A stretch of DNA of 63,284 nucleotides, the filler included, from Stramenopiles sp. TOSAG23-3 (lineage: Eukaryota), in assembly GCA_900128585.1 (NCBI GenBank). It is 8 parts of 8 records of this genome, joined end to end, with 100 filler letters (N's around TTAATTAATTAA, not from the genome) between each part and the next. Parts side by side here need not be neighbours in the genome. Positions count along the whole stretch, not along the records: positions 26,530 to 35,258 come from LT642990.1; 7 more parts are not named here. One strand, written 5' to 3'. The position numbers and the translations under genes are program-made. Shown here one piece after another: positions 8,751 to 53,001 of this stretch. Each line of letters begins with the position of its first letter. Within the stretch, counting starts at the first letter, position 1. The notes beneath the pieces were generated by a model that saw nothing but the letters and a program-made list of their open reading frames with translations, was not told the origin of the DNA and made no database searches.

Positions 8751-8850
8751 NNNNNNNNNNNNNNNNNNNNNNNNNNNNNNNNNNNNNNNNNNNNTTAATT
8801 AATTAANNNNNNNNNNNNNNNNNNNNNNNNNNNNNNNNNNNNNNNNNNNN
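8751..8850. other. Artificial contig-joining spacer (N44-TTAATTAATTAA-N44); also at 17599-17698, 26430-26529, 35259-35358, 44066-44165, 52859-52958, 61652-61751
   Basis: The same 100-bp linker with stops in all six frames recurs, and flanking contig lengths decrease or stay equal along the window. Confidence 0.97.
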
Positions 8851-11800: not shown

Positions 11801-14800
11801 GAATGGGACGGAAGCGTCAAACCCAAGAAACGATATTCACCAATCGAACCAGCATCACGTTGCGCAAGCAGGACAAAAATCGGGCGCTCTTGTCACAGTA
11901 GGTGTCATTTCAGCTGATTTTCCGTTAGACAAGTTTAACCACAAACGCCTAGAAACTACTTTGCAGGAATGGATTAGCGCACTAGCGTTTGTGCGCCGGA
12001 AAAACGATACCCATAAGGCATTTTCATCTAATAACCCTGCTAATGTAAAACAGAGTAAAACAGGGAAAATTGGTAGCGGCACGCTTCCAAAAAATAGTAC
12101 TATTGGACTTAGCTTTGCAGTTACTGACCGACTTGTGTTTAGTGCGTCTCCTATATCTAGTGTATACGTACAGTATATGTTAGGCCCAACGAATATTCAT
12201 GGACATATACCGTTGGAGGCGCTGACAGATGTGTCCAGTGAAGGTAGCGTGCGGCTCATGCTTGGCCACAGCCATTTGTGTGTTTTAACGGGGCTGAGTG
12301 CAAGTCAATTTCGCGCGTCAAGACTGGCCAAAGGCGTTCGCCACTTGGTGGTAAAGCAGGATAGTCTGAATACACAGACAAATGATGGGGAAGATGTAAA
12401 CATTAAAAAATCAAATACCCCAACTCAAGATCACGGAGTTCCCCAATCTGCGAAATTCCTACCCCGAAGCAAGTATCAATGGAGCACCACATTTCCAACG
12501 AGAAGGACTGAAGCTGTTTATCAGACATTTCCGTCCTTGCATGTACATGCCCAACTCTGTAGTGGTTCTCCAATTAATTCTTCTATATCACCGGGTGACA
12601 TCCCTTCAAAACGCAGTATAAACGTGCAATTAGTTGTGCCTAAAGTGAAACATCGGTTTACACCAGAAATTTTAGAGAGCTTCTTAGTGTTACAGCAACA
12701 GATGGGGGAAGAGCTGACAATGTTATTGGGCGCGCTAGAAAAGTTCATTGAAGAATCTAACGCACCCCCTAGCGCCACCAAGGGCAATGTTTACAAGGAC
12801 ACGTCTGAGCTTCAAATGCCAATTTTTGAATATACATGGCTGTTTCAATTTGAGGGAATGGAAATTGTTGCAGGTCTCGACATTGCAGATGATATACCAT
12901 CACTAAGTCTGTCTCTAAATACTGGCGATTTTAGCTTGACCAAACGGGATTCCGAAGGTGTGGGGAAAGTTGAGTTCACGGATCTTACTGTCCAATTTTC
13001 AAGTGGCCAGGGGCACATTACAGACGAAGAAGTTTTAGGTTTGATGCAAACAAATATATTTGTAGAGACCCGTTATAAATCAGGGAATATTGTGGCATCA
13101 AAATCACAGTCAGTAAGCAATGTCGTTATCAATCAAACAGGGTTTGTTTTGCGAGCTGGTTTTTTTTTGAGATTACAATACATGATATCACAGTACAGGT
13201 ACCATATTAATCGTTACTCAGAGCGCTCTCAGTTCTTGCAACCCATGGTGCAAGCAGTGCTGAATGCAAGCAGCAGTAATATAATGAGGAGTGTTGGCTT
13301 ACAACCTGGAAAAAATATTTCGAGCGACAACACAGTTGGGGAAAATAGCGAGTTTGGGAATTCAGACTTTGCGTATACGGGTGAACTAAATTCAGGTCAA
13401 AGTAGACAGGAAGATCAACCAGGAATCAAACAAGTTGTGAAAATTGATATAAAGGAAACAAGCGTAGTTTTTTGCAATCGTCTTCGACGAGTTACAAATG
13501 ACAATGACGATAAAGAAAGTGGGTTGGTGATAACGTTAGGAAATATTTGCCTTGAGGGTCATGAGGAAAAAATCAGGAAGGCGCAGTCTCCGCATTTAAG
13601 TTCAAATTGGTACGGGCAATGTGCAATAACTAAATTGCAAACTTCTTTTGTACTAAAAGTGGAGGGAAAACTGTCTTCAGGAAGACATCATTCTGCAGCC
13701 GGGACAGTTGTACTAGAACCGAACGACGAAGGAGCAGTCGGGTCCAGCACTGGTTTAGCGCCACTTATCTCGGCTTGGTTTGATGCAAAGAATCATAATA
13801 AAAGTGTGACGTGGCAAATTCCAGGAGTGCAATCACTTGTTCTGTGGGATAGTCATCGAAAAGAAGGCAAGATTCGTGTGACAATTGAGCGCATCCACAT
13901 GCAGCTTAATGCGTCTATAATTCGCCTATTGTTAAGCACCCATACAACTTGGTCAGCCTCAGAGTCCCAAAAAATTAAATGGCGGCAAGTGCAGCCAAGT
14001 CATAATTCTGCAGCGCCTGGACAAAGGAAAAACTTTCTTTATCGAAATGGTGTTGAAGAAGATGCATTTAGCAATGCATCTTCAAAGGGGGACAGTTTCA
14101 GCGACCATAGTATGAGCGAGGATGAGCAAGAAACGGGTGATGACAATTTTACTTGCCCTGTAATTGCTTCATTTGAATATGTATTAATCAGTGCTCCTGG
14201 GCAGTGCCTTGTATATGATCACAATGGATCTAAACAGTTGTTTGGTTTGGCGTTTCCCAAAATACATAGTGGAGGGCTAATTAATGTAAACAAAAGACAC
14301 CAGTTAGACATAATGTCACAGTCCAACTTTATTTGCACAAAATTTCAAATCACCCCTGAATTAATGGTGTTTTTATCGGAATTAGTAAACGAAATTCGTG
14401 AAATAAGGACCGATATTGTAGCAATTAAGCAGAAATATGTTCGCCACAAAATATTGAAACAGCAGAATAAGGGGGGAAGCGGGGGCACATACCGTAGACC
14501 AGCCAATGGGAAAATACGCCGCAAACATAAATCAAGCCGCAAGAAATCAAGGAAAGGCAAAACCGTAAATAACCGAAATCGGGGCAAAACAAACGACCCA
14601 TTTGAAGGAGACAATATTGACGATAGCGGGCCAGGGGACATGGATTACATGAGCCAGGACAGCTCTATAGACGCCGATAGTGTCAGTGATTGGGAAAATG
14701 ACTCTGACGACTTTTCAGAAACTGACAGTGAAGACGAGGATTCATTTTCTGTTTCAGGCGCGTTTGAGTCTTCATTTTTATCAGTGATTAAATCAGTTGT

Positions 14801-17351
14801 ACTTTTTCGAGTGACATCTTTACAGTTTGTGGTAGGTTGTTTGCCTGTAACGGAAGAAAGTATCATGATATCTTTCAATAAGCCGATAGACATCGTGTTG
14901 TCAACCGATTCTGTGGATCCGAGAGAGTACCAGGTTAAAGATCGCCAACTTAATCTAATGTCAATGACTGTAACAATCCCTATAGTTCGCGCAACTCTGC
15001 AAGAAGCTTACCAAGCTTCAAATATTGAGTTAACAGTGTCCGACATAAAGGCACAACTGAATATGCTATTTGGTTTACGTGTTGATGCACCAGTTGAACT
15101 AGCCTACATTGATGTTGGCAGCATGGATGCGTTTTTTAGCATGACATCGTTGGAGCGTATACACACGTTTATAGCGGCATGGGCTAGTATATTAAACAAT
15201 GCAAAAGTAGTGATGGCGGAAGAAGCTGTGCATTTTTGGGGCGAAGATGGTAAAACTTCCCGCAGTGCGCAAGTACCCGATGGCCCAAAATCCAACGATG
15301 GATATACCGAAACGGATGGCGCCCAAATGGTTTTGTCCACAGCTACAAGAATTTTGTGCGGGGCAGTGACGAAAATTAAGTTGAAAATACGGAAAGTGCC
15401 CTTGCACACATTAGAACATACAGAAATTGAAGCAGTCATGCGAGATGTTGAGTATAGAGCAATGGAACCTGGAATTGTGTATGGAAAACGCGCGATGGTT
15501 TCTTCCTTTTTTGGAAGCATCTCTGATACGAAAGTAAGTATTTTCCCAGCTCGTGGACGACACAGCAGTGGGGCTTTAGATGGTGTCTTTGTTTGCGAAC
15601 GAGTGTGCACTATGGTGCTGCAAGATTATTCTCAGAACACTTTCATCAGTGCGTACGATCCGGACACCTGGGCTTCATGGCAAGGGAAATGGATGCACAA
15701 AAAGAAAGCCGTTAATACTTTCGGTTTACTTGTTGGCCCTTCAAGTGGTCGCCTAATGTTAACCGAGCGCAGCGGTGCACCGACAACCCTGCTGACGTTA
15801 GACCCAATGCTATGGACATTTATCCTGACGGAAAGGTTAGAGAAAACGGAAAAAAAGAAATTTAATGTGTGTAGTTTGGATGGGCAAATTGTTTCTGATC
15901 ACGTACTAAAAATGCGGATTAGTCATCAGACAGCCCCTTTTCTGATAAAATGGTTTGCAGAAGTTATGCGCGTTATTGCAGCAAGCAAAGCTCAGGCCAT
16001 ACGCTCTTTAACTGACCAGGGGTATGTATACTCTTCCACCATGTTCACCAAGCAGAGGAAGGATATGGGTTTTTGGGGGAATGACGACATGTCGAGGTTT
16101 GAACCTAACACGTATAGTGGGAAAGGGGAAACTCTTGCGTCTTCGTCGGATAATGATTTATTGGATTATCAAGCACACGGTGTGATCACTCTTTATATCT
16201 CTCAAATGAATTTCATATTTCCTGCCGAACGGAGTTACGGGGCATCTCGCGGTTCTATGTCCCCTTACGTCGGATTCTATGCGAAACAGGTATTTCATAG
16301 GTTTGTCCAGCAGCTGGATGACCAGGGCGATGATGTTTCTAGGAGTCTTAGCATGAACATTGGCATTGCAGCAGTCGTTATTGGTAAGATCAAGGATAAG
16401 GATGGCTCAATTTCTGGGCGAGATGAAAAAGATCTAGTAGTTTTTCCGACATCCCATTTTACTTTTCAGACAAAACATCGTGTAACGCGCAGCGTGGGCC
16501 GTGAATACCAACGCTCCAGCAAGCGTAATCGCCAGGAAAAGCTCATCGTTTATTATACTCTGCGCTCAGCATTTACAGATGCGCACACCGGTACAGCAAA
16601 TTCGACTAGGTCTTCAGCAATGGCTGAATCAATGGGCATGCCATCAAATGGAAAGCTAGACAATTCGCCTTTCAGCGACAACAAACGTTTAGGGCGCTGG
16701 GACGGGGTTTCAAATGATGAGACAGGGTCAACAGGGGATAATAAGACAGGGAGTAAGAAGCCTGGCGCAATCAAAGTTAGTAATGAGTTCGACGACTACC
16801 ACATTTTAACCCAAGTGCAGCAAAGCTATGTAAAATGGTACAGTAAAGCAAACATAGAAACAGGGCGATCGGCTAGTAGTGACAAAAAACTTCTTCTGGG
16901 AAGGAAAGATGCATACGAGCGGCGTCGAAATATTAAGCGCATACTTCATTTAGATTCCGATGGTCGAAAATTTCATAACGTGGTTCATGCATTTCAATTT
17001 GCGCCCAAGCTCAAGATACATGGCCTTGATGAATATGAAATCAAACTAAGCACTTACTTGTCAAAGTTCACATCGGTGGAACGAAACAAGGATACGGGGG
17101 AAATTGAATCACTAAGTAGAGTCATGGATACTTATTTTATCGGTTTCTTTAAACGTTTCATTGTTGGTGCAATTGCTGCCAGTCACACCTTAGATGTAAC
17201 CGAAGCTAAGCTGAATAATGCACTTTCAAAGAAAAGGCGTTCCATTGTTCATCGTGACAGGAAAGCAAAAGTCCAAAATGATGATTTTGAAGGCGACGGT
17301 AAGCCCAACAGAAGAACGAGAAGAAGACAACGGAAACATAAAGGAGAATAG
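8851..17351 (+). CDS. Giant bridge-like lipid transfer protein (BLTP1/KIAA1109/Csf1-like), 5'-partial, split by a 1-bp frameshift at the G7 run 11442-11448
   Basis: ORFs 8867-11479 and 11334-17351 join if one G is removed (E-R-G-A-I-R-S). Long beta-rich segments. The C-terminal YYTLRSAFTD...IKVSNEFDDYHIL...FAPKLK resembles the BLTP1/Csf1 C-terminus. Confidence 0.6.
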
Positions 17352-17598: not shown

Positions 17599-18350
17599 NN
17601 NNNNNNNNNNNNNNNNNNNNNNNNNNNNNNNNNNNNNNNNNNTTAATTAATTAANNNNNNNNNNNNNNNNNNNNNNNNNNNNNNNNNNNNNNNNNNNNGC
17701 ACCTGACTTTTCGGCAGGGAGAGCCACTCGACCAGTACACTGTTGAACCCTTTCACCTGCTCCTTTAAATATGCTTTTACCCAATCTCGCTTTTTAACTT
17801 TATGCTATCCCATCACCATAAATATTTTGTTTATTGTATTTTATGCTCACTCCAAAAAAAGATACTGCATTCAATATATTATTATTCCACAACTTGTTGT
17901 AAGTAATAAGGACCCGTTACCTAGGTACCTGATGGTATTATACCGTAGTAGTAGTACGGAAGAAGTTGTTCAACAAAATTCCCAAGTTGGTGGTTGTTGT
18001 ATTGTATTATTATGTATAGTAATAGTTCATTTTTTTATTTATTATTTTTTTTATTATTTTATATAATAAAATTTTCTATTAATATTCCATTCTCTCCTTG
18101 TATTATCATATTGTTGTTGTTGTATTTAATATTTTTATTTATTATCTTCTTCACAACTTATACTAAAACAAGATAAATAATGATGCCATTATATAATATT
18201 ATTATTCTAAAAAACTAATGATATCTAATATACGCGCCTGTTATATTTAGATTATGAATACTTCCTTGCTTTATTTATTACAAGGAACAAATCAATACAC
18301 CGCACCCTGACTAAAAGTACGCCACCAGTGTGGCTTTTACTCCTTAACTC

Positions 18351-25799: not shown

Positions 25800-26645
25800 C
25801 AAGTGTGAGGACATCCAGTTTTGTACGTGTAATAGAAAAGCAAAGAAAAGACAGGCGAGTGCGAGACAATAGTGTGCGTGTGCGCGTTGAACCTCCCCGC
25901 AGAATCAACCCGATCCCACATTCGGTAAGACTTAAGAATTAGATTTTTAACGTTTGTACATAGTTTTCAATCAGTTTCTATATCACAGTTCTTACACACG
26001 TACCTTTTAAAACTAAAATCACACTTTTTATTTCAAATTGGAATCTTGACCAGAAATTAAGGAAGGGTGTGTGCAGTGCAATAGGAGGCAGCATCTACAT
26101 TTGGAGTCAGTGTAACTCAGTCTTTAACTCTTATAGATTTATTAGAACGACACAAATGTTTCAATAACATTCATTGCGTCCAAATCTTGCATTCAAGATT
26201 TATGATAACACTTAATGCTGTGACCATATTCTTTCTGATTAACACGTAGTAGTTTTCTATGACAAAAATATTACTTTTTTAGACGACTATATAAATTATT
26301 AAAATGTATGCTACAATTGTTGTCCAACTGTGCATTTCGGCAGTCTATTTGGACTCCCAGCAACGTATCCTAAGTCACAATTTTGTGACCCTCCTTTACA
26401 AGCACTACCATCGCCGTAACGCGATAGACNNNNNNNNNNNNNNNNNNNNNNNNNNNNNNNNNNNNNNNNNNNNTTAATTAATTAANNNNNNNNNNNNNNN
26501 NNNNNNNNNNNNNNNNNNNNNNNNNNNNNAGACAATTCTCTTTCGAAATATGTTTGAAACATCATTGTTACACATAGAAACGCAAGATAGAATGCAAAAA
26601 GGGGCGGTCATTGACAGAGTTCACATATAATTGCCTCGTTATAAG

Positions 26646-28040
26646 ATGCCTTATGATGGCCGTATCACAGACGGAAGTGAGCATGCAGAGTGCTGCGGGT
26701 ATAATATGAACAATGTTACTTGGAAGCGATGGAGTGGGAGAAATTTTGAATACAATGAAGGCCAAAAATACGCTGGAAACGGAATCTTAATAAGAATGGT
26801 AGGAAAACGTAAGTTTTTCCATCTCTCTACATATCCAAATGAAGATGCGTTTACTGAATTGTCTGAAAGAATGGAAGGACGAGCAACAACTGGTGGTTCT
26901 GGTAACTTAGCGTACCAGCGATGTGAATGTGGAAAGACGTTTAAACCATTTATAGGACAAGACTGTTGTGCAAGATGTCTCCTACAGCAAAAAACAAAAG
27001 TAGAAATGGAAAAAAAGAAGTTGGAGACAGATGCAGAAAATCATAGAAAGAAAGTGGAGTTGCTTTCACAGGAGTTAATGGCTCTCCAATCAGATTATGA
27101 TTTTACAAAGTCAAAGGCAGCTGAAATAGATAATCAATGGAAGATGCAACAGTTATTGCTGGATGCAGAAAAGGCCAAATCAAAAAGTTTATATAAAAAG
27201 ATTGCATCTCTGAAAGATGGCTGTACAAAACAACGATCGTTATCACGGTTAACAAAAGCCTTAGCACTCAACAGTGACGCACTATCTAACGTTCTTTCAG
27301 GGGAAGAAAAAATAAAAGGTGAGGTGGCAAACCTGAAGATCCAGTTGGATAGTTACAGGTCAGAGTTAGCTGCCGTAATTGCAAAACAACAGTTGTTGAC
27401 CACCGAGGGAAATACATCTATTATAACGTTTCTGCAGGAGACCATTTACGAAGATTCCGTTCGTTTTTTTACGGGTGTGTTTGGTGTGAGTGGCCCTTTG
27501 AACAAGAACATTAGGAAGAATTGTGTGGAGAAAAATTTAAGAGAGTTTCCAAAGCAATTTCACGGTATATTAGCATCTTCTGGTTTCTCAAACATGTCAT
27601 TTTCGTTTCGTAAAGGAGAAACATTAGAGTCTGATTTTGCGATCAAAGTACAAGATCTCCTTAATTTTGGCTGTTATATAAATGAAGAAAGTGAGACAGT
27701 ATCTGTAGGCCATATGAGGGTTGGTGATATATTTGATCTTGTAGGAAGGAAAGACATTCTTCAACCGGGGGAAATCCAACACAGTGATCGGATAGACACA
27801 GATACCCTGCAGCAATGGAGAAGAATTTCCCGTAAACGGCTGGCTTCAATGGTCATTGAGCATTTGTTCAAAAAAAACTTTTTGACCAAATACAAACGAA
27901 TAACTGCTGCCAGAATCCGATTGGACGAGACAACGTATGGCGTAATGTTGATTATAGAAGTTACGATGGCAAGTTATCGAAAAATAGGACAAAGAATGGT
28001 CCTTGATAGAGGATTGGAAACGTGGCAATCCTTGTTTTAA
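26646..28040 (+). CDS. Hypothetical protein with Cys cluster (CECG...CCARC) and central coiled coil
   Basis: Open frame of ~464 aa from ATG 26646, with a heptad-rich E/K/L segment. No family recognised. Confidence 0.6.
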   Translation: MPYDGRITDGSEHAECCGYNMNNVTWKRWSGRNFEYNEGQKYAGNGILIRMVGKRKFFHLSTYPNEDAFTELSERMEGRATTGGSGNLAYQRCECGKTFKPFIGQDCCARCLLQQKTKVEMEKKKLETDAENHRKKVELLSQELMALQSDYDFTKSKAAEIDNQWKMQQLLLDAEKAKSKSLYKKIASLKDGCTKQRSLSRLTKALALNSDALSNVLSGEEKIKGEVANLKIQLDSYRSELAAVIAKQQLLTTEGNTSIITFLQETIYEDSVRFFTGVFGVSGPLNKNIRKNCVEKNLREFPKQFHGILASSGFSNMSFSFRKGETLESDFAIKVQDLLNFGCYINEESETVSVGHMRVGDIFDLVGRKDILQPGEIQHSDRIDTDTLQQWRRISRKRLASMVIEHLFKKNFLTKYKRITAARIRLDETTYGVMLIIEVTMASYRKIGQRMVLDRGLETWQSLF

Positions 28041-28486
28041 CTCACAGCAGTTTTTGTGTATCGTTGGATATACGTCCTCTGTTTTTATCTTTTCGTCTAT
28101 GTACCATTGATAGGGTAACCAATAGTACCAAATATGTATATTAAAATCATAATTTTGTAGCTAGATTGGCCTAGAGCTACCTCCCCCCCGTTTTTTTTAT
28201 ACCTATTAAAAGTATCCTTATTAGTATTACGAATCGTAGTCTTTTAACAAAATACGGTACAGCCATTCATTTACAAGTTTTTATTAAATTTTCTGTATCG
28301 TACAAGTTTTTTATTATTTATTATTATTAATATTACTAGCAGTTTCTTTGAAACTTTTGCAAGCTAAACAAAATTGCTATGGAAGAAAACTTTGAGCATA
28401 TTATTTAACAAACTGTTTATTCTTCGGTTTATAATTCGAATTATATTACTGTGCATGACAATTATTATACATTTAATTTGTTTTGA

Positions 28487-30307
28487 ATGAGTTCTGAAGC
28501 ATTGTGGCGTGGTAGTGACTCGCAATTTGGGTACTCCCCATTTGTCAACCGTAACTTTCAATTCAAGGTGTGTAGTTCATATCGAGTGCGTGACTTTGTC
28601 CTGTCAAATTCCCGCGCTTACACCTGTCATATTATCAACAGTTGCACCAGCGCACTGTTGGAATTGATTATAAGAAGGGGGGGGGTGCATCTTGGCGACG
28701 CAGGAGGGTTCTGTGACCAGTGGGAGATTGGATGGTCAGACCCAAAAACTGAAAGGGGATTTCACAAGCGATCTGTTATAAAGCTACTTGGGGAGGGGAC
28801 GGATTATCTGGAACAAATTTCAAAAGGAGTAACCCAAAAGGAGTTCCTGGATGCAGCAAAAAAGTATATCGAAAAGGAAAGGGAAGAAAGGTCAATATCG
28901 TTTGTTATATGCTCGACCTTCATGGCGTACACCAACAATGTCGTAAATGGGGCGACCTTGAGAGCTTTGTGTGCATGGTGTGAGGCCAAAGACCTGCACC
29001 TGATCATGGATGACACGCTTGGTTCTTTTAGGTTGAGTGGCGATCTCTGCAGTTGGAACGGCGTGATTAATTTTTATCCCCATGGATATATTCTTGGCTC
29101 AAAAACATTTGGATGTGCGTCCTTATGGATAAAGTCAAATTTGGTAGAAATGTTTTCTGTCTTGGTACCAAACTTTTCTGGTAGTCATGTCTTGCAAGAT
29201 TGTCTGGGTCGGTTTAAAAGGACATATCAATACGTGGCAAAGCTAGCCAGAAAAAGATATTCGGATGCAGAAACTGTTAGGAAATACTATAAATTCTGCG
29301 GGGGGGCGTTCTTTTGGTGGGTTGGAGAGCCAGTCACTGAGAAATGCAAATGGATTCTAAACTTGATGAAAACTTGGAGGTACGACAAGAGGATTTTAGT
29401 ACCTTTCGATTACGATTTCAAACCGGTTCTGAAAAGAATCAGAGAGGAAAAGAAAAAAGGGTTAAAAGTGGAAAAAGAAAGAGCGAAAAACCGAAAAAGA
29501 AAGCGAGAGCAAAGGGCAACGAACGCCCTGCTACCGAAGTTTGAAATGGTGAAAGTAAATTCAACACTGCTGGTTCCATTCGGGATGGCAAATCTGGAAT
29601 CGAGTAATTATATCAATGGATCCGTAGTGGGTGTAAACAAACAAGGCCGGGTGATAAAGAGATTGGGACAGCTTTTGCACCAAGAAATTGAAATCATCCG
29701 CAAAAAATGCCGTATAAGAGGAGAAGTGGAGTCGCCAGTTGCAATATGGAATGATGTTTCTAATCCACCAGCCCCACAATTTCTTCACAGTGATGGGGCA
29801 GCAATGAGTGTGTTCATACCTGTAAGTGAGTTTGGGCGTCAATTGGATGTGCTGGCCTTGTTTGGAGGAAAATTTTTGCGCGTACGGGTACATATACCAT
29901 ATGGAACTGTGTTAAAGTTCAATGCATCTGTGTTCCACGGGGGTTCACCAGGGAATGATCATTCGCCTAACCCTTGCATCCACTTTTATGTGGACATAAG
30001 TGCAGATGAAGAAACATTCCTACATAGGAGATTACGATGCTTTCGGCTACCAGAGGCACAAAATTATATGCCGGCTGACATGGTTTGTAACAATGGCACA
30101 CTGAATATGGCTATTGTTAGAAAGAATGGCGTTTTGCCCTTGGAACACTTCAAAGATATAATGGTTGGTTGGTATCCAGGATGCAATGAGTGGGATGTAA
30201 CTTCGACTGATGCCAGTATGGACGAATCCAAAATGAATGATTCCAGTACGTACGAATTCAAAGAATGTTCATATGATGAATTTGTAGTTGCTGCAGATAA
30301 AACTTAA
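28487..30307 (+). CDS. Fusion of PLP-dependent aminotransferase-like (fold I, class III-like) domain and 2OG-Fe(II) oxygenase (PhyH-like) domain
   Basis: LRALCAWCEAKDLHLIMDDTLGSFR (D175) and PHGYILGSKTFG (K206) mirror the class III LIxDE...PD...K pattern. PQFLHSD (H434, D436), MSVFIPV and GTVLKFNASVFHGG (H484) give the HxD...H triad. A basic NLS-like linker separates the two domains. Confidence 0.6.
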   Translation: MSSEALWRGSDSQFGYSPFVNRNFQFKVCSSYRVRDFVLSNSRAYTCHIINSCTSALLELIIRRGGVHLGDAGGFCDQWEIGWSDPKTERGFHKRSVIKLLGEGTDYLEQISKGVTQKEFLDAAKKYIEKEREERSISFVICSTFMAYTNNVVNGATLRALCAWCEAKDLHLIMDDTLGSFRLSGDLCSWNGVINFYPHGYILGSKTFGCASLWIKSNLVEMFSVLVPNFSGSHVLQDCLGRFKRTYQYVAKLARKRYSDAETVRKYYKFCGGAFFWWVGEPVTEKCKWILNLMKTWRYDKRILVPFDYDFKPVLKRIREEKKKGLKVEKERAKNRKRKREQRATNALLPKFEMVKVNSTLLVPFGMANLESSNYINGSVVGVNKQGRVIKRLGQLLHQEIEIIRKKCRIRGEVESPVAIWNDVSNPPAPQFLHSDGAAMSVFIPVSEFGRQLDVLALFGGKFLRVRVHIPYGTVLKFNASVFHGGSPGNDHSPNPCIHFYVDISADEETFLHRRLRCFRLPEAQNYMPADMVCNNGTLNMAIVRKNGVLPLEHFKDIMVGWYPGCNEWDVTSTDASMDESKMNDSSTYEFKECSYDEFVVAADKT

Positions 30308-30437
30308 TATAGGTAATTAAAAAAATATACAGTACCAATAATAAAATATTTTACGAATTAAAACCATCTACCCCGACGCGAAGAATGCCTTCAACTCACA
30401 AGACCGCCGCCCTCAAGCACTGCCCGGCCGAATATTT

Positions 30438-33400
30438 TTAACGAGAAACAGTAATTCCTTTCATAAAGATATATTTTGTACGCTGTTTTACCCTTTTTGC
30501 CATTACTTTCACATCCTTTGCAGTTGCATTTCCGTTTGCAAGAAACCCTACTGCATCTTGGATTAGCTGATCTAACGCCGATATATTAGCGTACGAGCAG
30601 TACATACAGTCCTCATTCTCTATGCACCGACCGCAAATGCACCCTACACCGTCATAATCGTGAAATGTTTTTATGTATGAACTTTTGCTTTCTCGCGTCA
30701 GAGTGTTGCTTTTATGGTGTACGTATTGTGCTCTAATCTCTTTTAATGGCTGTGGGTCAACCATCTCACCGTAAGTGTGAGTCAGTAAAATTTTGATCAG
30801 CTTAGACAAACAAGAACTCTTGTTTGTACTGGAGCTTACAATTGAGCGATATACTGGAAGTGATTTCACATATTGATGATAAGATTCCATAACTTCCAAT
30901 AAGCCTACTTCCCCTAGGGAAAATCCGTGAGACACCAGCTTATCCATGACATCTGGACCAACAGTTGTTGCAATCAAATCATATGGTCGAAATAAATCTG
31001 GAAAGCAGTAAACTTGCAGAAACTCCAATTTAGCAGCTGCTCTTCGATACCCTTCAGCTATCTCCGTTAATTCTTTTGCTTTCGTTTCCTTGTCTTCAGC
31101 ATGAGTGGAGGCACTCATATAATATACAAGTTCCCTGCTGTAGATTCCCATTAAATAAATTGATGAGAATATATCTTGCATTCCCTTCTCTGTTTTCGGT
31201 TTTCCTGTTTTCTTATGTACCTTTATTGCTTCCTGGAGAACACGAAGTAATTCCTCAACATGAATTAGAACCTGATTTGCCTGCTCTCCTATCAATCGCC
31301 TTGAGCATATATCATCCTTTCCTAAAAACGATTCCAAGTGCTTCCGAGATTCACTATATATTGCAAAGTTAGCTTTTGCGGCAGTTTTCAAAAATAGTAT
31401 TTCTGTTTTCTCAGCGTACACTATCAGCTTTGAGCGAAAGATTGGCCTGTGGAGCGCTTTTAGAAAATAGTCCAACGAGGGCCCCAGCTCCTTCTTGTCT
31501 GCAATTTTGTGACCCATGTGCTCATCATACATGGCTAAACTATTTGTGCACAGTGCAAGCAAATCAGCCACTTTTGTAGTCTTATAATGCAATGCGCATA
31601 GAGCAACCATCGCCCATGTTACTTCACTGCCAAACAAAGGCTCTGGGTTCACTAGACCTATGCCCATCGATTTTGCAAATGCAGCTCGATCGGTTTCCGG
31701 GGTCTTTTTTACCTCCTCACGTAAAAATTGCAAAATCTCAGGTGTCATTTGCACAGGCTTCGGCAGATTTTCTTCAGAAAATGGTCTAACTTCAGTTGCT
31801 CTCCTACGCTTCTTTCTGCCTTTCCGCACTGAATACGTTTCTTCGTGTTTTCTAAGGGCCTCTTTTCTTTTACGGAAGACAACTTTCAGTTCCTCTAATG
31901 TTAGTTGTCGTGCAGCAAAAATAGAGAAAGGGTTTTCACTGTTTCGTCCAATAGTCCCGTACCCTGAATTTTGCTTGCACATAAAAACTGCTGAAGGGTA
32001 ACAGAACGGGCTACGATGGTCTGCAAATCCAAACAACTTATTCAAAGCCTTCATATCACACGCCGGAATGTATGCAACATCGGTATGGTAGTCAATGGTA
32101 CCATCAGATCTGACAGTTTCTAACTTGTGTCTTGCAACGTCTTTCTGAAACGATAGCATCGACTCCGCAATTTGTCCACACAGTATATGTGCTTCTGCAG
32201 AATCTTCTTTAACATTTGCGATCAAAATTGGAATCATCTGCTCACGAGTTTGTGAAATATTCTCATTTAATATACGCACTAGGACAATCAGCTGATCTTT
32301 CTGTTGCCCTGATTTTGTCCTTGGTGCCCCGTCAAAGTGGATGGTAATATACAAGGTTCCCCCATGTATGTATGACTCCTTGCGCATATAATGGTTTATG
32401 GCCATTTTGATTCGATAATTCATTAATTGTCCAAACTCTTTGACGTATGCATGGTCTTTCAGCACAGTTTCGGATTGAGCAAGAAAATGCTCAATGCCAG
32501 ATTCACGAAGCATCTCCTTTGCAGTTTCACTATCTAAATTTGTTGACAACTCACTCATTTTTATTGGATACGTTTCATTTCCGACTGGTACATACCAAGT
32601 AGCATTAACAAAGCGCCAGTGAACCAATTTCTTTTGAGTTCTACTTAAAATCTTTTGTTGTGCTACTGTCACATTTGCTCTCCACCGATTTAAGAGCTCC
32701 TTTATTCGCTTCTCTTCATTCATTGCTTTAATCTCGAACTCAATAATTTCGATCAGATCCTTAACAATATCTGCTTTTGTTCTTTCATCGACAAGCCCCT
32801 TTCGTTGATTTGAAGTGAGGTTCTCCTGGAACTTTCCAAACAAACCAATAACGTTTTGAACACACTCATCTTGTTCGGTAGCAAATTCTATTTCATCAAC
32901 AGAACTAGAAGAATGGACTAAATCGTCCAGTGTTGATACACAATTGTTATCATTCTCGCAATGTATAAAGACAGACTTACTTGTCCCACTAAATGGACAC
33001 TTTGCGCATTCAAAGGAATTATGAACATTCAGAACTGTTCCTATTACATCATTGCGCTCATTAACGTCCTGCACTATATCAATTTTTTCGAAAAACTCTT
33101 TGCAAATGTCATCCCTGCTGACAATCATCATATTAGCCTTTGCATTAATTTTTGCATACAGACTCTTTTCTTCTGCAGTCATTCCAGTTAGAGCACTACG
33201 CAAAACCATCTGCGCCCATTTGTGTCCTCCAGAGCAAAACCAATTCGAGTCCATATAAAGTCCAACTGCCTTTGACACAATTTTTTTCAATTCATCAGCA
33301 TCATGTGTATGTGTGAACTCCATAACATGCCATCGTGTTGGAAGGCCAGAACATGTGTACGGTGTTTTCATGACTATGAAATACTGCATAGCTGCTAAAG

Positions 33401-35258
33401 TGATAACACTGGATTTACTCTTAGTGCGCTTCCACAAATCTATCCATCTAGATTTGGTTAGGTCCACAGGTGGCCGCATAGACAAAAGACAATCCTTGAT
33501 GCCATAATCAGCCAGGTCGTTTCTAATCAAAGAACGGCGAATAAAGAATACACCTTGCATGCGGTCATTGCCAGCTGCCATTTGTACTGTTAGAGTACGA
33601 AACGCAATAAACTGCTGATGCCAATGTGGTTTATTGCTGTTTAAAATGGCCAACTTTTCTTCTGTTGGAAACTTTGAAGTACGATCAGCAAGAAAAGCAA
33701 TATTTACTTTTGACATCCGTATGCAATTTATTGCAACAATTTTATGTTCCGGAGACCATCCCTCCCAAAATGCAAAAAATATCATATTATTGCTATTGTA
33801 AATTCTTTTGGATGCTCCCAACTGTTTTAATTTCTCCTTTAAATTTCCAGCTTTGTTCAACGCAACTCCAAAGTTGTACTCAAACTCGCCAAACGATTTT
33901 AGGCCTATACATGTATGTGCTGAAACTGCTGCATTTAGATTTCTTATAGCAGTTCCTAATGCATGTAAATCATGGAAAACCCCCGCAAAATAGTTTTTTA
34001 AATCATACCCAAAAGAATTCATTTGGGGAAATGCAATACGAAGAGCTTTTTGAGCATCCAGTACACCACATCCTGCTTCAATAATGCTGAAGGCAGAGGT
34101 CTTTAAACCTGACAGTTTCACAAGATACGCAAGCGTGCCCAGTACTTGTGCTAAGGACCGATCACACATGGTACCTGAGTGCCCATTGTCTGCATTGTGT
34201 GATAGTGCTTCCCATACAGCTTTCCACCCTGGAATTCGTCTTAAAGAAACCAGTAATGCTTCCATTTCCCGCTCCATTTCGCGAACGCGTTCCTTGTTAA
34301 TGTTTATTCGACGTTTAAATTGTTTGAAATTTTTGAAGAATCGTCTCCTTATATGGGACGGGTCAAGAGTACGATTCAACTTTAACTGGCGCTGAAGTTT
34401 CCGTATTGTTTTTACAGGAGTATAATGCTGACGTTTCTTTCTACCAGAATTTGGTATGCCGAGTTTTTTTCGATAAAAATTTGTAGCCTGTGCTGCAAAA
34501 GGAGCACGTTTGCTCTTCTTCTTCCTTAGCCGGTCTTTTTTCTTCTTCTTCATGTGACGTTCTAGTACAACTTTAACACGCCTTAAATAGTTTGTTTGTT
34601 TGAAGTACCCTGCCTTATGAAGTTGATTAAATACTGCTTTACGCCGTTCTGGTTGTCTATTAATATTGTGTTTTGAATGTACCTGCAGAATAAGCAATGC
34701 CTCAAAAGAAGTAATGGTTCGTTCTGGGTTACAAAGACAAAATTTTTTGTGCAAATCAAGAGATCTCCAACTAATTTCAGTACAAAAGTCACAATAACAG
34801 CATTTCCACTTGTGAGTGCCAGACTGTCTGCGCTGCACAGATTTCTGTTGCTTTAAAAGATAGTTTTGTAGTGATGCGAAACTGGACTCACCCAATATGG
34901 AGGCAACTGCACTATTAGTCATTGTGTCGTCGGAGGCAACTTCACTATTAGTCATTGTGTCGTCATTTTTGGAATTTTGATGTTGGGTGGGATGACGGCG
35001 GCGCCGACGTCGCCTACGGTGCCTACGGTGGTGCACCTTTTTTCCTGGGTCCTCTTTGCTACTATCTGAACCTGACGTAGATAATGATACGCTAGAAGCA
35101 TTCGATTCGGGTCCTGGCATAAATAATGATACGCTAGCAGCATTCGATTCGGGTACTGCCACAGATAATGATACGCTAGAAGCATTCGATTCGGGTACTG
35201 CCACAGATAATGATACGCTAGAAGCATTCGATTTGAGTCCTGCCATAGATAATGATAC
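30438..35258 (-). CDS. RAG1/Transib-like DDE transposase fused to class I SAM-methyltransferase-like domain and Zn fingers (>=1602 aa, possibly 5'-partial)
   Basis: Ordered motifs IHFDG (D972), PILIANVKED (E1014), ACDMKALNKLFG (D1064), CALH (H1220), LIGEQA and FRPY...SLGEVGLLEVMESYH (E1451/E1454) match RAG1 D600/E662/D708/H795/E959-E962. IIEAGCG...FGYDL is MTase motif I/II. CCYC...H...C is a Zn finger. Numbering is from ATG 35246. Confidence 0.75.
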   Translation of the reverse strand, partial: VSLSMAGLKSNASSVSLSVAVPESNASSVSLSVAVPESNAASVSLFMPGPESNASSVSLSTSGSDSSKEDPGKKVHHRRHRRRRRRRRHPTQHQNSKNDDTMTNSEVASDDTMTNSAVASILGESSFASLQNYLLKQQKSVQRRQSGTHKWKCCYCDFCTEISWRSLDLHKKFCLCNPERTITSFEALLILQVHSKHNINRQPERRKAVFNQLHKAGYFKQTNYLRRVKVVLERHMKKKKKDRLRKKKSKRAPFAAQATNFYRKKLGIPNSGRKKRQHYTPVKTIRKLQRQLKLNRTLDPSHIRRRFFKNFKQFKRRININKERVREMEREMEALLVSLRRIPGWKAVWEALSHNADNGHSGTMCDRSLAQVLGTLAYLVKLSGLKTSAFSIIEAGCGVLDAQKALRIAFPQMNSFGYDLKNYFAGVFHDLHALGTAIRNLNAAVSAHTCIGLKSFGEFEYNFGVALNKAGNLKEKLKQLGASKRIYNSNNMIFFAFWEGWSPEHKIVAINCIRMSKVNIAFLADRTSKFPTEEKLAILNSNKPHWHQQFIAFRTLTVQMAAGNDRMQGVFFIRRSLIRNDLADYGIKDCLLSMRPPVDLTKSRWIDLWKRTKSKSSVITLAAMQYFIVMKTPYTCSGLPTRWHVMEFTHTHDADELKKIVSKAVGLYMDSNWFCSGGHKWAQMVLRSALTGMTAEEKSLYAKINAKANMMIVSRDDICKEFFEKIDIVQDVNERNDVIGTVLNVHNSFECAKCPFSGTSKSVFIHCENDNNCVSTLDDLVHSSSSVDEIEFATEQDECVQNVIGLFGKFQENLTSNQRKGLVDERTKADIVKDLIEIIEFEIKAMNEEKRIKELLNRWRANVTVAQQKILSRTQKKLVHWRFVNATWYVPVGNETYPIKMSELSTNLDSETAKEMLRESGIEHFLAQSETVLKDHAYVKEFGQLMNYRIKMAINHYMRKESYIHGGTLYITIHFDGAPRTKSGQQKDQLIVLVRILNENISQTREQMIPILIANVKEDSAEAHILCGQIAESMLSFQKDVARHKLETVRSDGTIDYHTDVAYIPACDMKALNKLFGFADHRSPFCYPSAVFMCKQNSGYGTIGRNSENPFSIFAARQLTLEELKVVFRKRKEALRKHEETYSVRKGRKKRRRATEVRPFSEENLPKPVQMTPEILQFLREEVKKTPETDRAAFAKSMGIGLVNPEPLFGSEVTWAMVALCALHYKTTKVADLLALCTNSLAMYDEHMGHKIADKKELGPSLDYFLKALHRPIFRSKLIVYAEKTEILFLKTAAKANFAIYSESRKHLESFLGKDDICSRRLIGEQANQVLIHVEELLRVLQEAIKVHKKTGKPKTEKGMQDIFSSIYLMGIYSRELVYYMSASTHAEDKETKAKELTEIAEGYRRAAAKLEFLQVYCFPDLFRPYDLIATTVGPDVMDKLVSHGFSLGEVGLLEVMESYHQYVKSLPVYRSIVSSSTNKSSCLSKLIKILLTHTYGEMVDPQPLKEIRAQYVHHKSNTLTRESKSSYIKTFHDYDGVGCICGRCIENEDCMYCSYANISALDQLIQDAVGFLANGNATAKDVKVMAKRVKQRTKYIFMKGITVSR
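34899..34964. repeat. 33-bp tandem duplication (DDTMTNSxVAS x2)
   Basis: GGAGGCAACT(G/T)CACTATTAGTCATTGTGTCGTC occurs twice with one mismatch. Confidence 0.9.
35079..35258. repeat. 42-bp coding minisatellite (SNASSVSLSVAVPE-like), >=4.3 copies, runs off contig end
   Basis: ATAATGATAC recurs at 35081, 35123, 35165, 35207 and 35249. Confidence 0.92.
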
Positions 35259-35358
35259 NNNNNNNNNNNNNNNNNNNNNNNNNNNNNNNNNNNNNNNNNN
35301 NNTTAATTAATTAANNNNNNNNNNNNNNNNNNNNNNNNNNNNNNNNNNNNNNNNNNNN

Positions 35359-35855: not shown

Positions 35856-36668
35856 CTATCTATTTTGATTTCTCCGCCTATGGCGACGAAACGCTTTCTG
35901 CAAGGTCCAAACTGCATGCAATGCGGGTGCCATTTCATATTCCCCACCACTTTCCTCGACATGTTCTACCCATGCAGCAGGCTCATCCCATTGGGATTCA
36001 CCAGTGTTTTCCTCATAATAATAATACGATTGGGATGCTTCGTCCCATAATCTAAACCATCGGGGTTGGTATTCTTGCAACGCGGCACTTTGCCACCAAG
36101 AGTTGAGATTACTTTGCCATTCCTGGAGGTATTCCACCGTTTTCTCCGAGTACTCGGCCATTTCTTCATTGTATTTCTTCCAATACTTCTCAACTTCGGA
36201 AGAATAGTTTGCTACGTCGGCCTTTGTCTGCTGCTGCAACTGCTCCCATGCGGCCGCTTTCTTGCGCCACTCTTCTATGGCATTCGCTATTTCGAAAGCA
36301 GAATCTAAGTGAGAGAGAACGGGGGGCCGAGGTGGACCGTCGGCTTCATCAGTTTGTTCATTCGCGTTGGGCAGGAATTGCCTTCCTACAGATTCAATAT
36401 TGCATCTGCAAAGCGGACAAGTAATTAATTGTGACGCACAGCTGCGGCATATATTTTGGTGCGCGCACGGGTGTAAAACTGCGTCTGCGCGCCTATCGTA
36501 GCATATAACACACAGCTCTTCTTGGTCAGAATCGTCGCCTGTTCCATACGCAGTAACAGTTGGTTGCTGTTGTACTGCCACATCTCTCGCATGAGACGCC
36601 GAGTGCACTCGCAAGTGCACCGAATTTTTGAAGGAGCGGGCGCAAGTCGGACATATGAACCGTGCCAT
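35856..36668 (-). CDS. C2H2 zinc finger / RING finger / WW / IQ protein (putative E3 ligase)
   Basis: C2H2 FICPTCARSFKNSVHLRVHSASH, RING CVICYD...PCAHQNICRSC...CPLCR, WW WFRLWDEASQSYYYYEENTGESQWDEP and IQ-like LQKAFRRH. ATG at 36668. Confidence 0.85.
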   Translation of the reverse strand: MARFICPTCARSFKNSVHLRVHSASHARDVAVQQQPTVTAYGTGDDSDQEELCVICYDRRADAVLHPCAHQNICRSCASQLITCPLCRCNIESVGRQFLPNANEQTDEADGPPRPPVLSHLDSAFEIANAIEEWRKKAAAWEQLQQQTKADVANYSSEVEKYWKKYNEEMAEYSEKTVEYLQEWQSNLNSWWQSAALQEYQPRWFRLWDEASQSYYYYEENTGESQWDEPAAWVEHVEESGGEYEMAPALHAVWTLQKAFRRHRRRNQNR

Positions 36669-37870
36669 ACCGGAAGTCAGCTTGACTGTACAAAACTGTT
36701 TATTTTTCAGGTTCCCCAGAGAAGCCGAAGCGAACGACGAGCACTTTGCTGAATTGTCTGTCACGCCAAAGGCATCAAAATGCGGATGAAATTAGCTTTA
36801 AGGTGGTAAAGGCAAACTCAAGACTCCAGAGGGCAGGTGGATATTATTCTTTGCTATTTTAGTCGTCTACTCCGTTCTTCTTCTTCGTGCAGTTGTTTTT
36901 AGTCGTACCAGGTATTTGATTATAATATAATATTTAGGAATATTTAGGAAAAATATTATACAGTAGCATCATAATTGTTGTTTTTATTTTTTTTTATATT
37001 ATTATTTTAGATAGAAGGATCTAGAAAGAAGACGACGACTTATTTTTAATAGTCTATAATATATTGACTAATAATAGATAATAAAAATAACTTATTTGAC
37101 GACTACCACCCCAGCGGGTTTACCTTTTGTATAGACTTATAAAAAATAATAATTAAAAATGACAACAACCACAGCAGTACATCTCATTATTATTATTATT
37201 ATTATGAAATTGGAAGAAGTGGTTCAGTATTAAATATTAATTAATACAAACACCACCACTTTGGAAGGAAAAGAAAAAACCAAGAAGGAAAGAAGTTCGG
37301 GTTTCAGTATTAATATTTTAGCTAATAAATATTTATTAAAATGATGTACGACGAGGACAAGGAATTATCAATGGATTAAATTATAAAAAAGTTTTTTTGA
37401 CAAATCAGAGGGATGGAGGAGGAGGAGGAGAGGAGGAATTCATTCAGAAAAAAAGAAGAAGAGAGAAGAAAGAAGAAGGCCGTTGAGAGTTATTATAAGG
37501 CAAATAGCGGGGAAAAAACGTTGTTCAATTAAATAAAAATATTATTATTATAATTTTTTATTATTATTATTTATTAGTCGTCTCTTATTATACCTGGTAC
37601 ATAATAATACACAAAAAAATAATAATATATAATAATTAATAATAAAGAGAATCGATCGGCGGGGAATTGTACGACAGTTGTTATAGAGTGGACTATACAG
37701 TAGTTTAAAATAATAAAGAAAGAAGAATAGAAGAGGGGAAAAAAGTTCTTCTTCGTTTAAATAGATATGTCATTTGAAGAGAGTGTTGCTGTTTGATTTC
37801 TCAAGGAGTGTCCGTTGCCGTTTGGTGGAGGACTTTGAGACCACGCGGTTTATTGGCGAGGTAGAAAAGT

Positions 37871-44065: not shown

Positions 44066-44165
44066 NNNNNNNNNNNNNNNNNNNNNNNNNNNNNNNNNNN
44101 NNNNNNNNNTTAATTAATTAANNNNNNNNNNNNNNNNNNNNNNNNNNNNNNNNNNNNNNNNNNNN

Positions 44166-48428: not shown

Positions 48429-48696
48429 TAGGGATAGGATTTTAAGGGGCTAGGGGCAACGCCCCTATTTTTCTTGTCTCGAAACCAAAAAAGGGGCGGA
48501 ATCTTTNNNNNNNNNNNNNNNNNNNNNNNNNNNNNNNNNNNNNNNNNNNNNNNNNNNNNNNNNNNNNNNNNNNNNNNNNNNNNNNNNNNNNNNNNNNNNN
48601 NNNNNNNNNNNNNNNNNGTTCATAGCAGGTGATTAGCAAAGCCCCTTTTTTCGCCCCTTTTTTTTTGTTTTTGCGCCTCTTAAAATCCTTAGCCTA
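48429..48696. mobile_element. hAT-like TIR element (MITE or collapsed longer element) with 8-bp TSD CGTGAAAT
   Basis: TSD at 48421-48428 and 48697-48704. The 22-bp TIRs TAGGGATAGGATTTTAAGGGGC and revcomp TAGGCTAAGGATTTTAAGAGGC match 18/22. There are subterminal AAAAAAGGGGCG/CGCCCCTTTTTT inverted repeats and an internal N gap at 48507-48617. Confidence 0.8.
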
Positions 48697-52727: not shown

Positions 52728-53001
52728 TAACCGAGATGCATTTGAACATTTATATTTTGGTTCAGATTCAAAGTGTCCAGTGAATCGAGTTTATTTGATG
52801 TGTTTGACATGCGATAAACCACCAGCTGAAGAGAAACCCATGGTTGGAGTGAATGTGGNNNNNNNNNNNNNNNNNNNNNNNNNNNNNNNNNNNNNNNNNN
52901 NNTTAATTAATTAANNNNNNNNNNNNNNNNNNNNNNNNNNNNNNNNNNNNNNNNNNNNTTGCAAAATTAGATCAGGTTTACAAGATTGGGATAATCTTGA
53001 G

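Follow-up and report, generated by a model that had tools for sequence, protein, structure and literature searches.

A probable, highly divergent DDE transposase-type enzyme with a predicted RAG1/Transib-like core and a methyltransferase-fold domain in a stramenopile assembly

The window analyzed here, a 63-kb stretch of DNA assigned to Stramenopiles sp. TOSAG23-3, consists of eight pieces separated by seven linkers of the form N44-TTAATTAATTAA-N44. One of these pieces, an 8.7-kb contig at positions 26530 to 35258, contains two open reading frames (ORFs) on the plus strand, ORF-A and ORF-B, and a transposase-like ORF, P0001, that converges on them from the minus strand (Table 1). P0001 is the copy, on this contig, of a protein that combines a methyltransferase fold with a RAG1/Transib fold. 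The pieces (8750, 8748, 8731, 8729, 8707, 8693, 8693, and 1533 bp) are short contigs of a fragmented assembly ordered by size, and adjacency across a linker carries no meaning. A further gap of 111 N's lies at 48507-48617.

The reading frame of P0001 is open across 1602 codons and runs without a stop up to the contig end. An earlier, sequence-only reading had proposed that it encodes a RAG1/Transib-type catalytic core with an intact Asp-Asp-Glu (DDE) triad and had listed six motifs in RAG1 order. Translation recovered all six in that order within the one ORF, starting at amino acid (aa) 968 (TIHFDG), 1005 (IPILIANVKEDS), 1062 (ACDMKALNKLFG), 1217 (CALH), 1317 (RLIGEQA), and 1443 (SLGEVGLLEVMESYH), and the codon coordinates that it had given for D972 and D1064 were exact.

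We modeled aa 883-1602 with AlphaFold2 from a 20-sequence alignment and without templates, obtaining a mean predicted local distance difference test score (pLDDT) of 78.3 and a predicted template modeling score (pTM) of 0.80. In a Foldseek search of the PDB with this model, all 47 matches at E ≤ 1e-3 were to chains of RAG1, amphioxus RAGL (BbRAGL), or HzTransib. The best of them reached E 3.3e-8 over ∼620 columns at 10-12% identity, and the first unrelated match had an E value of 0.27. Structural alignment with VIA-align gave a Z score of 17.6 to RAG1 (6xnx_C), with a root mean square deviation of 4.0 Å over 439 residues (model residues 3-622 on RAG1 460-1007). HzTransib (6pqx_A) followed at Z 16.0, with 407 of its 480 residues aligned, and BbRAGL at Z 14.7, the runners-up being the P element transposase (9.8), ISCth4 (7.1), and Hermes (5.8). 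A VIA-align scan of 48,161 representative chains, independent of Foldseek, ranked RAG1 (four chains), BbRAGL, and HzTransib first to sixth; the P element transposase followed at Z 9.8 with 295 residues aligned, and all other chains had Z ≤ 8.3, over ∼85 helical residues. Across all VIA-align searches, Z ranged from 16.3 to 17.6 for RAG1 and from 11.0 to 16.0 for HzTransib and was 14.7 for BbRAGL, with 357-450 residues aligned. Based on the model, the core is superposable on the solved multidomain structures of RAG1 and Transib.

The sequence-only reading had looked to the RAG1 and HzTransib structures for confirmation, and the model aligned to both (Z 17.6 and 16.0, respectively). It had also named a best match in some unrelated family as grounds for abandoning the idea; RAG1, RAGL, and HzTransib proved to be the only strong structural matches. 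A protein language model search, made from the sequence, also returned RAG1 clusters at ranks 1-3 (score 0.92, 166-170 of 256 features), and 8 of its 30 matches lay in RAG1-family clusters, with an En/Spm-type cluster (Transposase_21) at rank 28. Foldseek searches of viral predicted structures with the core model gave no match at E ≤ 1e-3. A homodimer prediction for two copies of aa 883-1382 scored 0.00 and gives no verdict either way.

Conservation was assessed in a 10-sequence alignment of homologues that includes two members at 23-24% identity. D972, G973, E1014, D1064, C1217, H1220, E1454, and H1457 were invariant in all 10 sequences, and because the motif residues remain invariant down to 23-24% identity, the occurrence of the motifs is more than chance. 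In the model, D972, D1064, and E1454 occupy the canonical positions of an RNase H-like fold, the layout of a DDE enzyme. The proposal of a RAG1/Transib-type core with an intact D-D-E is thus borne out for the fold and the catalytic residues by Foldseek, VIA-align, the language model, and the 10/10 invariance. Of the glutamate pair E1451-x-x-E1454 highlighted by the sequence-only reading, E1454 held up as invariant (10/10), and E1451 did not, being replaced by Q in 3/10 sequences. C1217-x-x-H1220 is likewise invariant, and its equivalence to RAG1 DALH, like that of RLIGEQA to RMNGNFA, is a pairing proposed in that reading. The cysteine-rich C-terminal tail probably forms a zinc knuckle.

Upstream of the core, a model of aa 320-885 (pLDDT 69) contains a class I S-adenosylmethionine (SAM)-methyltransferase fold in aa 320-575. 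Foldseek returned 80 matches at E ≤ 1e-3 for this domain, and all 46 of the 46 listed were methyltransferases or chains with the same Rossmann-like fold. VIA-align gave Z scores of 11-13 to TrmR, DOT1A/DOT1L, RsmD-like proteins, and others, with no family prominent, and Pfam gave no match for aa 320-575. Motif I reads E390-x-G392-x-G394 in P0001 (E/D390-x-G392-x-G/S394 in the family), a conserved acid (D/E415) lies past the second strand, and E495 is invariant within F-W-E-G-W. Based on the modeled fold and these motifs, we assign the domain to the class I SAM-dependent methyltransferase fold, with putative SAM binding. It is present in all full-length members of the family, including the most distant ones.

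The most N-terminal modules vary. P0002, a homologue of 1892 aa, has an N-terminal extension with a Ulp1/C48 protease domain (Pfam Peptidase_C48, E 4.3e-33); P0003 has a Ulp1 remnant and a thioredoxin domain; and P0004-P0006 have neither. Ahead of its conserved part, P0003 (residues 1-520) also carries numerous short PVLAV-type repeats besides the Ulp1 remnant and the thioredoxin domain, which is complete (E 6.8e-28), and this region looks like a product of gene capture.

P0002 is 99.6% identical to P0001, differing by 7 substitutions and one indel over 1602 aa. We considered whether it is a paralogue and rejected this: variants listed for sequencing run X2, from organism B, coincide with six of the eight differences, namely, five of the substitutions and the indel, an insertion at aa 65. 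This identifies P0002 as a close relative's version; the other two differences are absent among the run X2 variants listed. One contig of run X1, the run that best matches the P0001 contig, extends beyond 35192 on the upstream side, and its linker sequence there is that of P0002. Because of this extension, we conclude that the P0001 gene is almost certainly also Ulp1-bearing at full length and that the copy here is truncated before the Ulp1 domain. The start of the Ulp1 ORF was not found anywhere in the 63-kb window.

In the predicted structure, the C-terminal ∼620 residues have the multidomain layout of the RAG1/RAGL/Transib core, with dimerization/DNA-binding, pre-RNase H, RNase H catalytic, helical insertion, and C-terminal domains. 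By analogy with RAG1 and HzTransib, a mechanism can be proposed in which the carboxylates of D972, D1064, and E1454 would bind two divalent metal ions. The enzyme would nick specific element ends, the freed 3′-OH would attack the opposite strand, and the outcome would be a hairpin on the flanking DNA in a cut-and-paste reaction. The core is fused to accessory modules, namely, the class I SAM-methyltransferase-fold domain, two Cys/His zinc-finger-like motifs that are likely DNA binders, and, in P0002, the Ulp1 (SUMO-type) protease. As in other DNA transposons with epigenetic modifiers, the methyltransferase-fold and Ulp1 domains may act on chromatin or on the protein's own regulation.

Table 1. 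Coordinates of features in the 63-kb window (positions count along the whole window)
Feature	Position	Strand	Remarks
Linkers	8751-8850, 17599-17698, 26430-26529, 35259-35358, 44066-44165, 52859-52958, 61652-61751		
71-bp leader	26530..26600	+	Left contig end; candidate inverted terminal repeat or shared promoter
ORF-A, 464 aa	26646..28040	+	Cys-rich N-terminal part, long coiled-coil-like middle; no family match
ORF-B, 606 aa	28487..30307	+	Convergent with P0001 ORF, 130 bp between stops
P0001 ORF, 1602 aa	30438..35246	-	Single uninterrupted ORF, stop TAA, 5′ end open; contig end 35258
42-bp tandem repeat	35071..35258	-	Encodes 14-aa serine-rich repeats; contig breaks inside
Class I SAM-methyltransferase-fold domain, aa 320-575	33522..34289	-	Model, Foldseek, VIA-align, conservation
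Zinc-finger-like motif C747-x2-C750-x11-H762-x6-C769	32940..33008	-	Conserved; between methyltransferase-fold domain and core
RAG1/Transib-like core, aa 883-1505	30732..32600	-	Aligns to RAG1 459/460-1007/1008 and HzTransib 36-494
D972, proposed first catalytic Asp (GAC)	32331..32333	-	Beta1 of RNase H-like fold, model residue 90, strand 81-92; 10/10
E1014, invariant acid	32205..32207	-	Just past beta3; paired with RAG1 E662 in the sequence-only reading
D1064, proposed second catalytic Asp (GAT)	32055..32057	-	Directly past beta4, model residue 182, strand 169-180; 10/10
C1217-A-L-H1220, invariant C(2)H motif	31587..31598	-	H1246 further downstream kept in 9/10
E1454-x-x-H1457	30876..30887	-	E1454 (GAA, 30885-30887) proposed third catalytic residue; model helix 569-580; both invariant
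C-terminal tail, C1536-x-C1538-G-(R)-x6-C1547-x2-C1550	30597..30641	-	Invariant in alignment

The family to which P0001 belongs is small and looks eukaryotic. An exhaustive phmmer search of 1.84 billion representatives yielded only 25 relatives; 20 passed E ≤ 1e-10, and 11 passed E ≤ 1e-30. The records are from JGI, ENA, Logan, and EukProt, mostly with one contig per cluster. Members span 23-63% identity, and homologues across that range retain the same methyltransferase-plus-core layout. A profile search with alignment A1 recovered six known close relatives only, and a search from the most distant member, P0013, found P0039 and P0040 only. The closer alignment A3 gave 144 candidate stretches in metagenome contigs and 33 in viral contigs, with zero confirmed relatives. 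When 20 family members were searched against Pfam at E ≤ 10, no CMC (EnSpm, Chapaev, Mirage) or KDZ/Zisupton transposase family was among the 25 listed of 39 matched families.

Of the two plus-strand neighbors, ORF-A may be cargo of the same unit as P0001, and so may ORF-B. Neither had a kelch or PHD match at E ≤ 10 in a Pfam search restricted to this contig, and ORF-B had zero Pfam matches at E ≤ 10. The nearest language-model atlas cluster to ORF-B was an aminotransferase/2OG-Fe dioxygenase fusion of giant viruses (score 0.81), which we treat as a lead only. ORF-B is fusion-like: its first half resembles an aminotransferase, and its second half shows the H-x-D...H arrangement that characterizes 2OG-Fe(II) oxygenases.

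The 71-bp leader at the left contig end also occurs in runs X1, X2, and X4, where it is followed by the start codon of a P0002-like, Ulp1-bearing ORF instead of ORF-A. The leader is a candidate inverted terminal repeat because the same 71 bp precedes both outermost genes of an inward-reading three-gene unit. It occurs once in the 63-kb window, an exact-pattern scan of metagenome contigs for it gave 0 matches, and we found no convincing internal inverted repeat within the contig. Contigs of runs X1, X3, and X4 diverge from the sequence of the window at 30410 or rejoin it at 30372, both positions lying within the 130 bp that separate the convergent ORFs; this suggests that an alternative arrangement or a diverged copy exists. 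Run X2 has 385 contig pieces that align to the stretch, which could be many copies or equally error variants at a depth of several thousand, and we do not count them as evidence. Parts of the contig are present at high identity in marine metagenomes from several studies, and no RNA data set is among the sequencing runs listed as containing it.

The remaining contigs encode ordinary eukaryotic genes as long uninterrupted ORFs, including a pepsin-type aspartyl protease, SMC, an XPD-like helicase, and PP2C, as well as proteins with ankyrin repeats, RING plus WW, Myb, and teneurin-type EGF repeats. Because these genes appear as long uninterrupted ORFs, the source is taken to be an intron-poor eukaryote. 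A 1216-aa ORF at 57654-61304 (minus strand) is full of teneurin/tenascin-type EGF repeats (E 2e-120) and lies on a GC-richer contig (52-56% GC). A 302-aa ORF at 35856-36764 (minus strand) combines C2H2, RING (C3HC4), and WW domains; it is on the next contig and is unlinked to the transposase-like ORF. Two very long plus-strand ORFs on another contig, of 870 aa (8867-11479) and 2005 aa (11334-17351), had no Pfam match at E ≤ 1e-4.

We consider it likely that P0001 is a very divergent DDE transposase-type enzyme with a core of RAG1/RAGL/Transib architecture. It would belong with or beside the CMCT clade, whose EnSpm/CACTA, Mirage, Chapaev, Plavaka, ESTA, and Lanisha lineages are described as divergent DDE transposases in PMC12730594. 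It is not a standard Transib or RAG1L, because it lacks the C(2)C and H(3-4)H motifs and is invisible to HMMER as a relative. Most likely, the product of the P0001 gene is a functional DDE enzyme with RAG1/Transib architecture, from a divergent and previously unplaced lineage with a new domain combination; the family may be CMC-like or a separate lineage.

Several observations weigh against this assignment. Sequence comparison does not recover it: in Pfam, P0001 gave only sub-threshold noise and no RAG1 family at E ≤ 1, the 20 family members gave no RAG1 family at E ≤ 10 among the 25 listed of 39 matched families, and phmmer searches of PDB sequences with the single sequence and with a 20-sequence profile gave no RAG1/Transib match at E ≤ 10. 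The C(2)C and H(3-4)H motifs, which we defined following Kojima 2025 (PMC12730594), are reported there as common to the RAG1, Transib, and CMC lineages. In our alignment, C(2)C occurs in 3/10 sequences, at two different places and without positional conservation, and H(3-4)H occurs in 1/10; the only conserved Cys/His residues in that region are C1217, H1220, and H1246. The language-model query fell below the recognition mark (2026 versus 2300), making its support weak, and the AlphaFold2 training set included RAG1 structures. We infer, rather than observe, that the D972, D1064, and E1454 carboxylates converge in one site. One end of the contig falls within the gene and the other is at 26530, placing the element ends and any target-site duplication off the contig. 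Finally, the rarity of the family and its single-contig clusters fit a low-copy or domesticated gene as well as they fit a transposon.

This last point bears on the best surviving alternative, which we regard as doubtful: that such a transposase gave rise to P0001 as a domesticated host gene of low copy number, with a cellular DNA-cutting or chromatin role rather than mobility of its own. Most clusters of this rare family comprise one contig, long intact ORFs with the same domain order are kept at 23-63% identity, and there is no clear sign of many copies. The near-identity of the copy from organism B (P0002), which departs from P0001 by just 7 substitutions and one indel over the 1602 aa, also fits a conserved host gene. 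The N-terminal accessories argue in the other direction, since they vary between homologues in a way typical of mobile elements. So do the 71-bp leader common to two outward-placed genes, as inverted terminal repeats would give, and the alternative junctions at 30372/30410 in three runs. As to mobility, the variable accessories, the leader before both outer genes, and the junctions speak for it, and the rare family, its mostly single-contig clusters, and the absence of sound multicopy evidence speak against it.

It is unlikely that the family is a true member of the Transib/RAG1L superfamily, forming a deep branch in eukaryotes as the sister group of the Transib or RAG1L known so far and bearing directly on RAG ancestry, as the sequence-only reading had proposed. 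RAG1, RAGL, and Transib are the best and sole strong fold matches, over nearly the whole RAG1 core, and RAG1 clusters are the top language-model matches. In addition, the contig has no RAG2-like neighbor, as with Transib, and the cysteine-rich tail lies where RAG1L and Transib have theirs, according to PMC10629977. Against these points stand the undetectable sequence similarity and the lack of a conserved C(2)C or H(3-4)H. The same source gives the tail motif of RAG1L and subgroup I Transib as CX2CX3GHX4C, whereas the P0001 family instead has an invariant C-x-C-G-x7-C-x2-C; no GRPR/K motif was seen. Moreover, the fold match does not discriminate, because RAG1, RAGL, and Transib are the only solved structures in CMCT; it cannot tell Transib from Chapaev, EnSpm, ESTA, or Lanisha.

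That the RAG1 likeness is an artefact, either because AlphaFold2 reproduced RAG1 from its training or because the protein is helical and unrelated, with a generic RNase H domain and motifs that match by chance, is very improbable: the missing HMMER similarity, the 10-12% identity in the structural alignments, the shallow 20-sequence model alignment, and the language-model value below its mark would agree with it, but the template-free model reached a pTM of 0.80, the match covers ∼440 residues in several domains at Z 16-17.6 (the next transposase reached 9.8, and unrelated chains in the set of 48,161 did not exceed 8.3), an independent language model that works from sequence likewise gives RAG1, and the proposed catalytic residues are the invariant ones.

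Beyond the assignment of P0001 as a divergent DDE transposase-type enzyme, we find a broader scenario plausible, though short of probable. Here, the family would represent an unrecognized deep RAG1/Transib-type lineage in marine protists that is visible only by structure and whose C2/H2 zinc module was replaced or never present. Its core would be permanently fused to a SAM-methyltransferase and, in some members, to a SUMO-type protease, making it a transposon with its own chromatin-modifying arm. If true, this lineage would provide an outgroup for reconstructing the origin of the RAG1 core architecture. The origin of RAG1 has been traced via Transib and RAGL elements found by sequence similarity, and because the core of the P0001 family escapes sequence profiles, surveys of RAG/Transib distribution probably undercount relatives. 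The family extends the known family tree of the antibody gene rearrangement machinery, and its missing zinc-binding motifs and family-wide methyltransferase fusion can help to work out what in the RAG1 core is ancestral. If active, the protein would represent a new cut-and-paste enzyme that forms hairpins and comes from an undersampled group of marine eukaryotes.

Compared with RAG1 of mouse and zebrafish (e.g., 6xnx and 4wwx), the P0001 core aligns over RAG1 residues 459/460-1007/1008 at Z 16.3-17.6, with 439-450 residues. It shares with RAG1 and BbRAG1L (6b40) the invariant acids at RNase H positions and, with RAG1L, a cysteine-rich tail in the same C-terminal place. Unlike both, P0001 shows only 10-12% identity, no HMMER match, and no conserved C(2)C/H(3-4)H zinc ligands. 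Its contig also lacks the RAG2-like kelch partner of RAGL transposons, and the N terminus of the protein consists of the methyltransferase-fold domain and the Ulp1 protease, whereas that of RAG1 is a RING/zinc-finger region. HzTransib (6pqx and 6pqn; Z 11.0-16.0, 357-407 of 451-480 residues) is comparable as a single-protein transposase without RAG2. P0001, however, is about three to four times longer (at least 1602 aa versus 451-480 residues in the solved chains), has extra domains, and has no sequence similarity to it.

A RAG-type enzyme in a protist is already known in kind (Tao et al. 2022, PMC9435367). That study reported that the stramenopile Aureococcus anophagefferens has an active RAGL transposon (AanRAGL), that further protists carry fragments of RAG1L, and that Transib occurs in bacteria, fungi, plants, and ctenophores, and the view in the sequence-only reading that RAG1L/Transib transposases are known mainly from animals is therefore outdated. 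P0001 resembles AanRAGL and the bacterial, fungal, and plant Transibs in being a RAG1/Transib-type enzyme outside animals, one of those from a marine protist. Those elements were found by RAG1/Transib sequence search and keep recognized domains, whereas P0001 is a structure match. AanRAGL in addition has a linked RAG2L gene, defined inverted repeats, and 5-bp duplications (PMC9435367).

Within CMCT, some lineages (ESTA) are tied to RAG1 by profile methods only (PMC12730594). As reported in the same article, all CMCT lineages have C(2)C and H(3-4)H, whereas the P0001 family has neither, and some of them carry epigenetic enzymes, such as TET/JBP dioxygenases. In the literature searched, outside Repbase and paper supplements (including the list of protist fragments of Tao et al.), neither the P0001 family nor any fusion of a RAG1-fold transposase with a methyltransferase-fold or Ulp1 domain was found described. 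The family is like transposons that carry chromatin modifiers or Ulp1 in joining a transposase with a methyltransferase-type module and Ulp1. DNA transposons with chromatin modifiers include the SET-domain HarbingerS and MuDR of Phytophthora, cited in PMC12730594. P0001 differs from such SET-carrying transposons in that its methyltransferase fold is predicted to be class I (Rossmann-like), is fused within the transposase polypeptide, and is family-wide. The P0001 family would thus be an added case of chromatin-modifier-carrying transposons.

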